This document shows positions 41,916-45,103 of a DNA stretch of 64,000 bases, one piece after another. How positions within the stretch are numbered: position 1 is the stretch's first letter; the number at the start of each line of letters is the position of its first letter. The stretch covers positions 1,952,001 to 2,016,000 of the forward strand of contig OZ242318.1 of assembly GCA_965208105.1 (NCBI GenBank), given 5' to 3'. The translations under genes were made by a program, and so were the position numbers. This stretch comes from Candidatus Latescibacterota bacterium (GTDB lineage Bacteria > Latescibacterota > UBA2968 > UBA8231). The notes under the pieces are model-generated. The model searched no databases, was not told where the DNA came from, and worked only from the letters and a program-made list of their open reading frames with translations.

Positions 41916-42707
41916 CTAACAGTTTCCCTCCTCCAGATTGGAGAATGGCTGCACTCGATACCAATACCGGTACGTTTCGCTGAAACCATACTTCCGCTGC
42001 AGAGCCAGGGCAGGCTCGTTGTTGGCCATCACCTGCAGGTAAGCAAGGCGCGCCCCCTGTTCAAATCCCCATTTGAGGCGTGCCTCAAGGAGCCCGCTAC
42101 CGAAGCCCCGACCCCGATACTCTGTATCCACCAGCAAATCAAAGAGCCCCATGATCGAGCCCGAAACAACTGCTCGCGCGCAGCCTACAGATCTTCCCTC
42201 AGCCCGTGCGATAACATAGGCCGCAGGAGTGGAGACCGCGTTGAGTAAACTGCGGGCTACCTCCGAGTGCTGACTGCGATCGGACAGACGTCTCCAGGTT
42301 TCGAGCCACTCATCTGTCGCACTTTGGTATAACGATATGGCAGAGGAACAATCGGAACTGGTATCAAGCGGCTTGGTTAGAACCAGTGTATCCGCGTCTC
42401 TGGAGTACTGAAGCATGGCCAATTTCTCCTCCAAATCCACGGGTTGACAAGCAGGAAAAATCTTGAAAAGACAAGGTAGCGACGCCCGCGAGAACGCTGA
42501 TTCACAATGATCCAGCTTCTCCTTGAGCGGGGTTGTGGATCCATAGAGAGGGACTACACAGTTGGCACGGCGACTGTATCCCGCGGACATTCGAACGATC
42601 CAGCCGTCGAAGAACTCTGTTTTCAGCGCGGGCAGCCCGTTCAGCGCCGCCTCTTCCAGAGCTACTACAAGCTCTGGACTTTTCAATGAATCAAGTACTA
42701 TTGCCAT
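41916..42707 (-). CDS. GNAT family acetyltransferase
   Basis: GYSRRAN, YRGRGFG, AYLQV..N..A..L..KYGF; start reset to MAIVLD. Confidence 0.88.
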   Translation of the reverse strand: MAIVLDSLKSPELVVALEEAALNGLPALKTEFFDGWIVRMSAGYSRRANCVVPLYGSTTPLKEKLDHCESAFSRASLPCLFKIFPACQPVDLEEKLAMLQYSRDADTLVLTKPLDTSSDCSSAISLYQSATDEWLETWRRLSDRSQHSEVARSLLNAVSTPAAYVIARAEGRSVGCARAVVSGSIMGLFDLLVDTEYRGRGFGSGLLEARLKWGFEQGARLAYLQVMANNEPALALQRKYGFSETYRYWYRVQPFSNLEEGNC

Positions 42708-42783
42708 AGGTTTCGATATGCCTATTTGGTGCTTCGGATAACGTTTCGCATTAGCCGAGGCCACATAGCGAGCTGCCGAAGGC

Positions 42784-42949
42784 CTAGTGTCCCGTCGCAG
42801 AGATAGGTTGACGCAATTGGGCCGCCGAGGCGCCAGGCTCACAAGGCGCCTGAGCGAGTCGTACCAGTGGTGTACGGCGAGTGAAGGCAACGCCGTGAGC
42901 CGGGATGGATCGGCGGAATAATGGCGACATATTTCTGCGACGGGACACT
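42784..42949. mobile_element. MITE, about 165 bp, with terminal IRs; right end interrupted by IS
   Basis: AGTGTCCCGTCGCAGAGATA (42786-42805) vs TATTTCTGCGACGGGACACT (42930-42949), 19/20 inverted match. Confidence 0.75.
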
Positions 42950-42964
42950 GATATGTATTGACGG

Positions 42965-43240
42965 TTGTCAACCCCCTCCGGGGTGGTCATTTCGGATGTT
43001 ATCTTTGCATGAGTTTGTTCGGGGACAGAAGGGACGCTGTAGCGACGGTTGATCCGACTGATATTCGCGGGTTGGCTACCGCCTGTCCTGGGTGCGTCGC
43101 GGAGCGGCCTCAATCTAGAGTCGAGGGTCAGCCTGAAAGGCGCCTCATAGTGTCTTCGAGGATTCTCCTGACCGGTCCCTTCTGTCCCGTTTCGATTTAC
43201 ATGAGCAAAGGTCCTATGCCGGCTTCTGAGACGATGAGCT
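42965..43240 (-). ncRNA. Putative bridge RNA/seekRNA region of the IS1111 element (boundaries approximate)
   Basis: Non-coding 3' end containing GACACTA (complement of target TAGTGTC), CTAG and ATATCAG (donor junction). Confidence 0.65.
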
Positions 43241-43242
43241 TA

Positions 43243-44262
43243 TCAGGCGGCGATCCGAGGTCTCCTGGCCACGAGGCGGCCGGGGCGTTTCTGCTCCCAG
43301 GCGATGGCCTGTATGGGGGGTGCGGTCTGTTCGGCGCGTCGTTGCAAGGCGGCCGTCTTGCGGGCGGGAAAGCGATAGCACCAGGCCGCTTCCACCAGCA
43401 CACGCCGCACGTGGGCGTTGCCCGCCTTGGTGATCGCCCCTCGCTTTTGCCGGGAGCCGCTGGAATGCTCGCTGGGGACCAGACCGACGAAGGCCATCAG
43501 TTGGCGCGGCGAGTCAAAGCGGGTGAGGTCCCCCAGCTCGGCCAGGGTCGTAACCGCGGTAAGCGTGTCTACCCCGCGCAGCGCCCTCATAGCCCGCGTC
43601 TCCCCTTCCAAAGACCACCCCTCCAAAGTCTGCTGCAGGGCCTGGTCCAACCCCTGGATCCGACCTTGGGCTTCCTGTACCGCGTCCACGTATTCCTGAA
43701 AGACGATCTGCTGGGCCGGATGATCGAAGCGCTGGGTCTCCAGCCAGCGAAAGTGGGCTTGGGTCCAGCGACTGCGCCCGGAGTAGATCCGGCCGTGGCG
43801 CTGCAAGAAGCTGTTCAGCCGCTGGCGCACGCGGCGCTCGGCGTGCTTGAAGTCTTCCCGGCAGCGCTCCAGGTCACGCATCGCCTCCTGCGCTTCGTCG
43901 GGCACCCACACGGGGGTCAACTCGCCGTGTTGGAAAAGCCGCACCAGAGACAGCGCATCGCGCCGGTCGGTCTTGATGCGGTCGCCCGGCCGCCGCGGGA
44001 TCAGCGAGGGCGCCACCACCGTGCAGGCGTGCCCCAGGGCTGTGAGCTGACGGTAGACGCCGTAGCCGCAGGGTCCGGCCTCGTAGCAAAACCGCAACGA
44101 GGTCCCACCACGGGCCAGTTGGCCCGCCAGCTTGGACAACGCGGCGTCCGTAGACGGTATCGTTCCATACAGGGCTGGCCCTTTTCGGCCTTCACCGGCC
44201 AGGGCGACGGTGATCGAATCTTTATGTATGTCCAAGGCGACGAATTTCGTAGATTTACGCAT
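43243..44262 (-). CDS. IS110 DEDD transposase/recombinase, C-terminus apparently shortened
   Basis: ALDIHK, CYEAG, KTDRRDA, GLVPSEHSSG, ITKAGN; typical terminal helix missing. Confidence 0.88.
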   Translation of the reverse strand: MRKSTKFVALDIHKDSITVALAGEGRKGPALYGTIPSTDAALSKLAGQLARGGTSLRFCYEAGPCGYGVYRQLTALGHACTVVAPSLIPRRPGDRIKTDRRDALSLVRLFQHGELTPVWVPDEAQEAMRDLERCREDFKHAERRVRQRLNSFLQRHGRIYSGRSRWTQAHFRWLETQRFDHPAQQIVFQEYVDAVQEAQGRIQGLDQALQQTLEGWSLEGETRAMRALRGVDTLTAVTTLAELGDLTRFDSPRQLMAFVGLVPSEHSSGSRQKRGAITKAGNAHVRRVLVEAAWCYRFPARKTAALQRRAEQTAPPIQAIAWEQKRPGRLVARRPRIAA

Positions 44263-44431
44263 GGCCTCCTCCTTCTCGCTGGGGATAGGTCTTTGGGTGA
44301 ACTCCGTTTTCCCAAAGATAACCCCCGACAACCGAGTCGGAGGAGGTCTTTCATATCTCCGTCAATACATAAGGTCTAGGCGGCGCAGAATTAGCCCGAT
44401 ATTATCGCTTCGAAGCTTCGTGGCTGCTCGA

Positions 44432-44701
44432 CTACAGCCGGGAAACAAGCTGCTCGTAACCAGCATGAGAGCCGATCCAGAACCAGACTATGAGACCTTC
44501 TGTTTGCACGCCCAAGGCACGGTAATCTCGTGTGACCCTGACAGCGTAGATCGGTTTGGTAGGATGAATCTTCTTGAATCGCAGACTCGGATGGTTTGGA
44601 TTATCCCGAAAACGGGCGTACGCTGCGGCCGCCTGAACCTGGACGTGCTGAGGAAGTTCGCGTAACGCTTTCCGAAAACGATCGGTTGTCCGGGATATCA
44701 T
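44432..44701 (-). CDS. RelE/ParE-like toxin
   Basis: F..NPNHPSLRFKKI, YAVRVTRDYRALG, WFWIGSHA.Y. Confidence 0.85.
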   Translation of the reverse strand: MISRTTDRFRKALRELPQHVQVQAAAAYARFRDNPNHPSLRFKKIHPTKPIYAVRVTRDYRALGVQTEGLIVWFWIGSHAGYEQLVSRL

Positions 44702-44916
44702 GAATCACGAGATTCGAAGGGCTCGGTCTTTCCTGATTGGTATTCAGCTACAGCCTCATCCGCCAGGGCAGTCAACTGCTCCGCTGTCGAGTCAAATGCG
44801 CGCTCCCACCGGCGCTCTGACTCCAGCTCCGAAATCAAAACAGCCGCAATCGCATCCTGCTCATCATTCGAGAGCTTCTTGATTTCCAAGATCGCCTTTT
44901 CCAGAAGTTGAGTCAT
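44698..44916 (-). CDS. Cognate antitoxin
   Basis: MTQLLEKAI..EQDAIA..E.E.RW..F; ATGA overlap with toxin. Confidence 0.8.
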   Translation of the reverse strand: MTQLLEKAILEIKKLSNDEQDAIAAVLISELESERRWERAFDSTAEQLTALADEAVAEYQSGKTEPFESRDS

Positions 44917-45103
44917 CGGAGTCCTCCTAATCAGGTGTTCGGCAAACTGTCGGGTTAAAGTAAATATAAGGAAGTCGCTCATGGAAGGTCTTGGTGAAAT
45001 TCCATACAGATGACGTTTTCCGAACCAGATTCGGAGGCGCTGAAGGACAGCCCGCTCTCAGGAGGCCTCTCCGATATCCACTCCAACTTCTACAGCCGCT
45101 TCC

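Follow-up and report, generated by a model that had tools for sequence, protein, structure and literature searches.

The stretch of DNA analysed here, 64,000 nucleotides from a Candidatus Latescibacterota bacterium (assembly GCA_965208105.1, contig OZ242318.1, positions 1,952,001 to 2,016,000 of the forward strand; hereafter the window), contains a miniature inverted-repeat transposable element (MITE) in which one terminal repeat is interrupted by an insertion sequence (IS) of the IS110/IS1111 type. The MITE is 168 bp long, with 22-bp terminal inverted repeats and no coding capacity, and 166 of its 168 bp lie at 42784-42949 (plus strand), where there is no long open reading frame (ORF). One end, CTAGTGTCCCGTCGCAGAGATA, occupies 42784-42805. 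The other is parted by the IS between ...GGGACACT and AG: when ...TATTTCTGCGACGGGACACT, which runs to 42949, is joined to the AG at 44378-44379 (plus strand), the mirror of CTAGTGTCCCGTCGCAGAGATA is restored with 21 of 22 positions complementary. This AG is the last of the split MITE end and, from the sequence and from comparison with unoccupied ends, is followed by the flanking TA/CTAG. A preliminary description of the locus, which had recognised an IS1111-type element in a MITE terminal repeat, was correct in its coordinates and strings. The inserted block (42950-44377, minus strand, 1428 bp) has the dinucleotide CT on the plus strand, or AG on the minus strand in the sense of the transposase, at both junctions, so that its boundary is ambiguous and can be shifted by 2 nt. 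Unoccupied MITE ends elsewhere in the same genome read ...GGGACACTAG, and the IS therefore inserted without target duplication.

Comparison of 12 copies identifies the window element as a deletion derivative of an IS of 1548-1550 bp. An inverted-repeat search finds 13-bp subterminal inverted repeats, with the right-end arm TATGTATTGACGG at 42952-42964 and the left-end arm CCGTCAATACATA at 44359-44371 (both given on the plus strand), which are kept in relatives; the terminal extensions beyond them sum to 8 nt (6+2, 5+3 or 4+4, depending on how the shared AG is assigned). The non-coding region that lies downstream of tnp, the gene for the transposase, is 293 nt long, compared with 115 nt upstream. 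The gene itself (43243-44262, minus strand) encodes 339 residues, with Pfam matches to PF02371 (E = 1.6e-22) and PF01548 (E = 1.4e-13). In the alignment to the ISCro4 transposase, residues D11, E61, D99 and D102 fall on its D/E/D/D, and GLVPSEHSSG falls on GLTPRRYESG, which contains the SG serine motif, G(L)-P----SG; the roles of the DEDD and serine residues are taken from passages of the IS621 paper (PMC11208158), and the motif from the seekRNA paper (PMC11187229). Full copies encode 379 residues (translation of copy c2). The window copy has lost 40 of them (323-362) through a 120-bp in-frame deletion between 12-bp direct repeats, a single one of which, GCCATCGCCTGG (sense), is left at the deletion junction (43298-43309, minus strand); in the copy alignment, query positions 335-360 match twice in full copies. 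The lost stretch falls in the part of the transposase that aligns in relatives up to residues 361-367, and because this part is conserved the window copy is probably non-autonomous and inactive alone. Its ends and RNA region are intact, and if it moves at all it probably depends on the 379-residue protein of sister copies acting in trans.

Copies of the element and their landing sites

A search of the bacterium's own genome, to which the copy and site counts in this section refer, gave 28 matches that resolve into 12 IS copies and fragments. Eleven copies are 1548-1550 bp long, the window copy of 1428 bp being the twelfth, and all 12 are flanked by ...CT and AG.... In 10 of the 12 the MITE terminal repeat (...GCGACGGGACACT) lies on the RNA-coding side, with the same insertion point and a single orientation, and the other two are at look-alike sites, c10 at CT-AG-TGTTGTG and c11 at CT-AG-TGGTCGC. 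Seven of the MITE-end copies are in one type of end and three in the other, and the RNA-coding end always points toward the MITE interior.

Whether these copies could be relics, so that element and RNA merely record past transposition, deserves consideration, as the window copy lacks 40 residues, the ORF of c12 is shortened to 277 codons, relic fragments are present, and expression of the element and its RNA is argued by analogy with known systems. We consider this unlikely, since a long transposase ORF is kept in 10 of the 12 copies (read directly in five, in three of which it spans 402-410 codons when counted from the first start in frame), identity among the copies is 95-100%, and guides and ends are intact in all 12. 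Much less probable still is that one or two hits in a MITE were followed by spread of the composite through MITE transposition or segmental duplication, in which case the 10 MITE-end copies would not be independent. The close identity of the IS copies would suit such a history, as would a MITE that is multi-copy and presumably mobile, but insertions are found in both MITE ends, the outer flanks are distinct in all 10 copies, and the host MITEs differ by point changes. Moreover, the tip is cut off from the MITE repeat by the insertion, so that the interrupted end should no longer function, and two further copies lie outside MITEs at look-alike sites.

The MITE is an abundant target. Its 166-bp piece (42784-42949) gives 143 BLAST matches at 133 distinct loci, and 87 near-full-length copies are present at 87-100% identity. 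TA is found on both sides in 47 of 77 IS-free copies, while the outermost bases vary (CTAG, TTAG, CTAA, CTAT and others); to judge by its sequence, the host repeat is compatible with a 164-bp element that duplicates TA and prefers CTAG. We take it to resemble IS630-type elements. No autonomous partner or parent of the MITE was found in this genome, and a 10-copy element starting CTAGTGCGCTG was rejected as its parent, sharing only CTAGTG with the MITE. At 17 further loci (e.g. 852-948 and 142615-142711) there are matches of about 97 nt, 85-87% identical to MITE positions 37-133 only, and their extent suggests another repeat family that has the internal part of the MITE and not its ends.

Of the 154 ends of IS-free full-length MITEs, 58 read CTAGTGTC, 17 read xTAGTGTC and 79 are mutated. 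The unoccupied 8-mer CTAGTGTC occurs at 87 sites, 72 at MITE loci and 15 elsewhere. Since it is mostly at MITE tips with a TA/CTAG flank that this 8-mer exists, the IS lands mostly in MITE ends. No attraction of MITE ends beyond the 8-mer could be detected in this genome: all 10 insertions at perfect sites are in MITE ends, as are 82 of the 97 perfect sites (a count that includes the occupied ones), and by our own arithmetic the chance of 10 out of 10 is 0.85^10, or about 0.19. The data do not require recognition of more MITE sequence than about 8 nt.

Some individual copies and fragments have further features. Copy c10 (G000:C1:2089782-2091330) is 6 nt outside a small repeat starting GTGTCCTGCAAATAAC, of which there is one other copy (2758958-2759072), and with its 3' guide variant CCCUAG the match to the left flank of this copy is one base longer than it would be with the usual CUCUAG. 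The RNA-coding side of c11 (G000:C1:3964226-3966518) abuts an internal point (...GCGACCACT) of another repeat, which starts CTAGTGCGCTG, is at least 944 bp long and has nine other near-identical copies; in these nine the same point continues GGTTGAAGG..., and the far flank of c11 is unrelated, an arrangement that suggests a rearrangement instead of a simple insertion. Copy c6 (G000:C1:3999575-4001432) is nested. Here a MITE with a TA duplication has split a relic of a related bridge-RNA region at precisely the 3' guide of the relic, CTA(A/G), and c6 sits in the terminal repeat of that MITE. The relic is ~77-86% identical to IS positions 134-280, and its 5' guide spells TAGTGCAG, not TAGTGTC. 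Finally, a solitary fragment (L024, G000:C1:3931346-3931506), which has 91% identity to IS nucleotides 1-162, from the right end as far as the donor loop, lies about 64 nt from a MITE fragment.

A predicted guide RNA and its match to target and donor

The 296 nt that follow the stop codon were folded, and both the minimum free energy and the centroid folds predict a bridge/seek RNA domain (43022-43188, minus strand) in which a 14-bp basal stem (43175-43188 with 43022-43035) surrounds two stem-loop modules. The basal stem rests on the fold prediction, being outside the covariation test described below, and the z-score of the whole folded stretch is only -1.7. The first, target-binding module (43101-43168, minus strand) consists of stems GGAG/CUCC, CCUC/GAGG and GAGG/CCUC around one internal loop; across relatives these helices (1-3) are 93-100% paired, with five pairs changed on both sides. 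AGACACUA and GACUCUAG oppose each other across this loop, forming its GACACUA and CUCUAG sides respectively. The predicted 5' target guide GACACUA (43148-43154, minus strand), at a position homologous to that in relatives, would pair with sense-strand TAGTGTC, in which the AG core is preceded by a single left-flank nucleotide and followed by four from the MITE repeat. Opposite it, the 3' target guide CUAG (43118-43115) is identical to sense-strand CT plus AG and is followed by an invariant A (the feature spanning 43114-43118, minus strand), which equals the first left-end base after the core and so stands at a handshake-like position.

The second, donor-binding module (43042-43100, minus strand), drawn from fold and alignment, has an outer stem GCGACG/CGUCGC, an inner stem G(C/U)GG/CC(G/A)C and an internal loop. 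Helix 4 is 98.9% paired, with GC changed to AU in 13 of 31 sequences, and helix 5 is 92.7% paired. On the 3' strand of this loop the candidate 3' donor guide AUAUCAG (43058-43064, minus strand), conserved among relatives, reproduces the ATATC of the right end together with the AG core. A degenerate 5' donor guide, CAGGAC, is predicted at 43085-43090 (minus strand), its AGGAC matching 4/5 of AGGTC, the reverse complement of the left end. The preliminary description had located GACACTA at 43154-43148, CTAG at 43118-43115 and ATATCAG at 43064-43058 on the minus strand, and all three are at those places; in the fold that it proposed as a check, the target matches GACACUA and CUAG lie on opposite sides of a single internal loop. 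In the 293 nt of non-coding region, by our own calculation, chance would supply any particular 7-mer about 0.02 times and a 4-mer roughly once, so that the CTAG match alone is not significant. The weight is carried by position, as all three strings are where 51 relatives carry strings matched to their own flanks or ends. An Rfam scan of 42600-44600, with E up to 10, returned no bridge-RNA family and only spurious eukaryotic or archaeal families.

Relatives were gathered by scanning one genome per species, which gave 235 loci among 275 candidate stretches; the best 80, with 56-85% identity, were kept. Both element ends were recognised in 51 of the 80. A search for the longest inverted repeat picked up the true subterminal repeats at many loci, but at others only repeats due to chance. 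The ends are nearly constant, the left one reading AG-ACAT(C/A)ATG(T/G)ATTGACCTG... and the right one ...CAGGTCAAT(A/C)CATATC-AG, whereas the flanks differ for each element. The 5' guide comprises the 9 nt after a conserved GAGAAyCCUCG, and equals the reverse complement of the last left-flank base, AG and the right flank. Comparison at six variable positions in 57 elements (51 relatives and six copies from the bacterium's own genome), with 27 distinct guides, gives a mean score of 4.30/6 for cognate flanks and 1.67/6 for non-cognate ones, and none of 100,000 permutations reaches the observed sum. Six guides score 6/6, 11 score 5, two score 4, four score 3, one scores 2 and three score 1. Close relatives show single-base compensations, AGGCUC/GAGCCT, AGACUC/GAGTCT and AGCCUC/GAGGCT (guide/target). 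The 3' guide, 8 nt ending in AG before the invariant A, equals the left flank plus core; here 28 distinct guides, including two mis-extracted rows (L048 and L075), have a cognate mean of 2.71/4 against 1.36/4 for non-cognate flanks, again unreached in 100,000 permutations. In both tests the elements share ancestry, the guides having been made distinct by identity only. GACACUA and CUAG of the window are exactly at the guide positions of the relatives. Guide segments that stay invariant whatever the target had been named beforehand as the outcome that would tell against guidance, and what the relatives display is variation with the target. That target choice lies with the transposase protein, or with pairing between the subterminal repeats and the MITE repeat, the RNA-DNA matches being coincidental, is scarcely credible: the matches are short (7, 4 and 7 nt, with CTAG expected about once in 293 nt) and the element does have long subterminal repeats, but the guide positions change with the flanks in both tests, scaffold and ends are conserved while guides vary, and no similarity between TATGTATTGACGG and the MITE repeat is seen in the sequence.

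The scaffold was assessed in an alignment of 31 distinct RNAs, scored against a hand-specified five-helix structure of 22 pairs. Overall, 96.9% of cells are paired, and seven pairs and 42 cells are changed on both sides. The covariation score is 0.170, compared with 0.078 in shuffles (0 of 500 reach it), and slid controls are 33-54% paired. The target guides lie in the unpaired strands between helices 2 and 3, and all 31 sequences keep the AGA that follows the 3' guide.

On the donor side, element ends vary little across relatives, and the comparison of donor-loop guides with ends is therefore low in power. Nevertheless, AUAUCAG is changed to AUACCAG in L046, L053 and L088, whose right end is ...ATACC, the exception being L074, which carries AUACCAG with an ATATC end. 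The 5' donor strand partly equals the reverse complement of the left end: in 19 distinct guide/left-end pairs only 6 of 20,000 permutations reach the observed sum, and the core-adjacent positions match in 16-19 of the 19, examples being L090 with CUC and left end AGAG, and the window and L029 with GG and left end AGACC. In the window the strand reads CAGGAC against an expected AAGGTC and scores 4/8. The matches are short, as had been remarked earlier; for the fourth guide, of which no clear form had been recognised, a degenerate candidate, CAGGAC, is present. We also considered a handshake base after AUAUCAG. By eye it equals the first right-flank base in the window, L063, L076, L099 and L047, and not in L029, L075, L041 and others, and the idea was rejected.

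Interpretation, expression and significance

We are highly confident that the window contains an RNA-guided IS110/IS1111-type element whose guides spell the tip of a MITE. The targeting of the MITE end by a non-coding RNA, as first proposed, is borne out by the Pfam domains, subterminal repeats, copy specificity, fold and guide-flank covariation, and the reading draws directly on the anatomy of the element, the census of its copies, their site and orientation specificity, the covariation of guides with flanks and the conserved RNA structure. In the mechanism we propose, the 3' non-coding region would encode a two-loop bridge/seek RNA, of which GACACUA would pair with the transposase-sense target strand at T-AG-TGTC and CUAG with the other strand at CT-AG. 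A circular junction of right end (RE) and left end (LE), RE...ATATC-AG-ACCTTATG...LE, would recombine with the target CT-AG-TGTC, and would in this way insert the element in a single orientation, duplicating nothing. By analogy with ISEc11, ISKpn4, ISPa11 and IS621, we infer that the RNA is transcribed and processed, that it is bound by the transposase, and that a circular intermediate and strand exchange are involved.

Several observations weigh against this reading. The match of the 3' target guide is just 4 nt, and its variant AUAG in c9 and c12 is found in copies that are both still in MITE ends. The two flanks of c11 do not come from one known contiguous sequence. Three of the 27 distinct 5' guides score 1/6, in some cases through frame shifts of the fixed window (L068 and L080) and in others through real mismatches (L048), all low-scoring guides having been left in the count. 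The flanks of the relatives are single occupied sites, with no empty-site controls, and the core-adjacent position of the fourth guide is mismatched. As for expression, a scan of 42700-44500 for sigma-70 promoters gave 0 sites, none inside the element, the junction promoter of the window subgroup is poor (spacer 19 nt, CCTTAT matching at 3/6), and contigs of three metatranscriptome libraries that cover parts of the non-coding region and transposase are possibly DNA-derived. One such contig spans the MITE/IS junction at ~93% identity; these contigs give neither transcription, strand nor ends, and are not counted as support, nor is any meaning attached to the stretches that they leave uncovered. 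The interval 42700-44500 has five terminator-like sites. Among 37 distinct computed circle junctions, 27 bring together TTGACA (or near) from the right end and CAT(N)AT from the left end, 17-18 nt apart, and the left-end hexamer matches TATAAT at 4-5 of 6 positions, which makes a junction promoter plausible in relatives.

More tentatively, and with considerable doubt, the clade of ~375-residue transposases to which the element belongs, with ISEc45 as its nearest named member, might be regarded as a natural reprogramming series of a compact IS1111-type recombinase, in which a full two-internal-loop bridge RNA with constant scaffold, ends and AG/CT core offers at least 27 readable target-guide pairs, to which reciprocal targeting, in this genome, of the IS and a TA/CTAG-targeting MITE could possibly be added. 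The guide of the IS must spell the MITE tip including its CTAG flank, which may make the guide DNA itself a target for the MITE, as seen once in the relic at c6. A clade search gave 8000 matches, mostly metagenomic. From sequence alone, an abundant and unstudied IS110/IS1111-type clade appears to follow the bridge/seek RNA code, with a register of 7-10 nt including the core for the 5' guide, 4-7 nt for the 3' guide and an invariant handshake-like A. The MITE tip with its target-site flank is added to the repeats that serve IS110/IS1111-type elements as landing sites. The family alignment could aid the design and testing of IS1111-type programmable recombinases, whose donor loop is less understood than that of IS621, and the moderate interest of the case comes mainly from the clean series of guide-target pairs that this unstudied clade has produced in nature. 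Adjoining the insertion are two small overlapping ORFs (89 and 94 residues; 44432-44982, minus strand), which are toxin-antitoxin-like by layout alone.

Comparison with known systems

The comparisons that follow refer to passages of the cited papers. The IS1111 elements ISEc11, ISKpn4/ISPst6 and ISPa11 are described as having a 70-100-nt seekRNA bound to the transposase (Siddiquee et al. 2024, PMC11187229), in which a top-strand match lies 5' of a bottom-strand match and which is retargeted in nature with a conserved scaffold. The element described here resembles them in its DEDD transposase, 11-13-bp subterminal repeats and long non-coding region downstream of tnp, in site- and orientation-specific insertion without duplication, and in the order of its matches, top strand before bottom strand with overlap at the insertion point. 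It differs in its transposase, which has 379 residues compared with the 330-350 given for the IS1111 group and is ~25% identical to those of IS4321, IS5075 and ISKpn4 over residues 65-365 (E ~1e-8), and in terminal extensions that sum to 8 nt, where the left extension of 7 (or 6) nt and the right one of 3 nt described for that group make 9-10 nt. A second loop apparently matched to the donor is seen here, whereas donor matches are unassigned in the passages of the seekRNA paper (PMC11187229). Bridge RNAs have also been predicted in the right end of 93% of IS1111 elements, with the donor part often in a multi-loop (Durrant et al. 2024, PMC11208160); unlike in many of these, the donor-binding part here is predicted to be a simple internal loop.

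The transposase is distant from those with solved structures (ISCro4, E = 1.7e-8; IS621, E = 2.2e-5), and the layout of the RNA corresponds to that of the IS621 bridge RNA, with two pseudo-symmetric internal loops predicted to carry two guides each. In IS621, left target plus core is bound on its bottom strand by the 5' guide, and core plus right target on its top strand by the 3' guide, naturally over only 4 bp; the left donor guide (LDG) extends no further than the first core base, and each 3' guide is followed by handshake bases (Hiraizumi et al. 2024, PMC11208158). When our element is read on the plus strand with a CT core, its 5' guide resembles the left target guide (left target plus core) and its 3' guide the right target guide (core plus right target) of IS621. 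The 5' donor guide would pair through the C of the core and not its T, as the IS621 LDG does to position 8, and, in the manner of the IS621 handshake, the donor is matched by the base that invariantly follows the 3' target guide. This scheme would explain why CUAG has only 4 nt and why the fourth guide ends in GUC-A/GAC-A. Unlike in IS621, the RNA is downstream of tnp, the scheme is inverted relative to the gene, and the subterminal repeats are long.

Among named elements, ISEc45 from E. coli plasmids is the closest that was found, with 48% identity over residues 7-361. It too has subterminal repeats and a 3' non-coding region, its ends and guides being different, and in all six listed E. coli plasmids (L109 = CP042952.1, 11283-13750; H31-H36) it lies within the annotation of the IS66-family element ISEc23; ISEc45 may be another IS that targets an IS.

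In its use of an abundant short genomic repeat as landing site the element is like IS621, ISPa11 and ISPpu9, IS110-family elements that target repetitive extragenic palindromic (REP) sequences and the last of which is reported to recombine at an invariant AG dinucleotide (PMC12288879), also the core here. Unlike the targets of REP-directed IS110 elements, the repeat is a MITE bounded by terminal inverted repeats. In the titles, opening parts of abstracts and passages covered by our literature search no IS110/IS1111 element aimed at a MITE end was apparent, which does not prove its absence from print. Insertion of IS4321/IS5075 into the inverted repeats of the Tn21 family, and the targeting of REP and attC sequences, are cited in PMC11187229, PMC11208158 and PMC11208160. 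The characterisation of the locus as a parasite of a parasite, offered in the preliminary description, stands as far as insertion into a MITE end is concerned, and does not stand as a novelty in view of these precedents. Like IS4321/IS5075, the element has a fixed insertion point within a terminal repeat that belongs to another transposable element; unlike them, its host is a non-autonomous MITE of 168 bp, the recognised 8-mer includes the flanking TA/CTAG, and the transposases are ~25% identical. Targeting of repeats and transposon ends is already known for the IS110/IS1111 family, and the element in the window is a further example.

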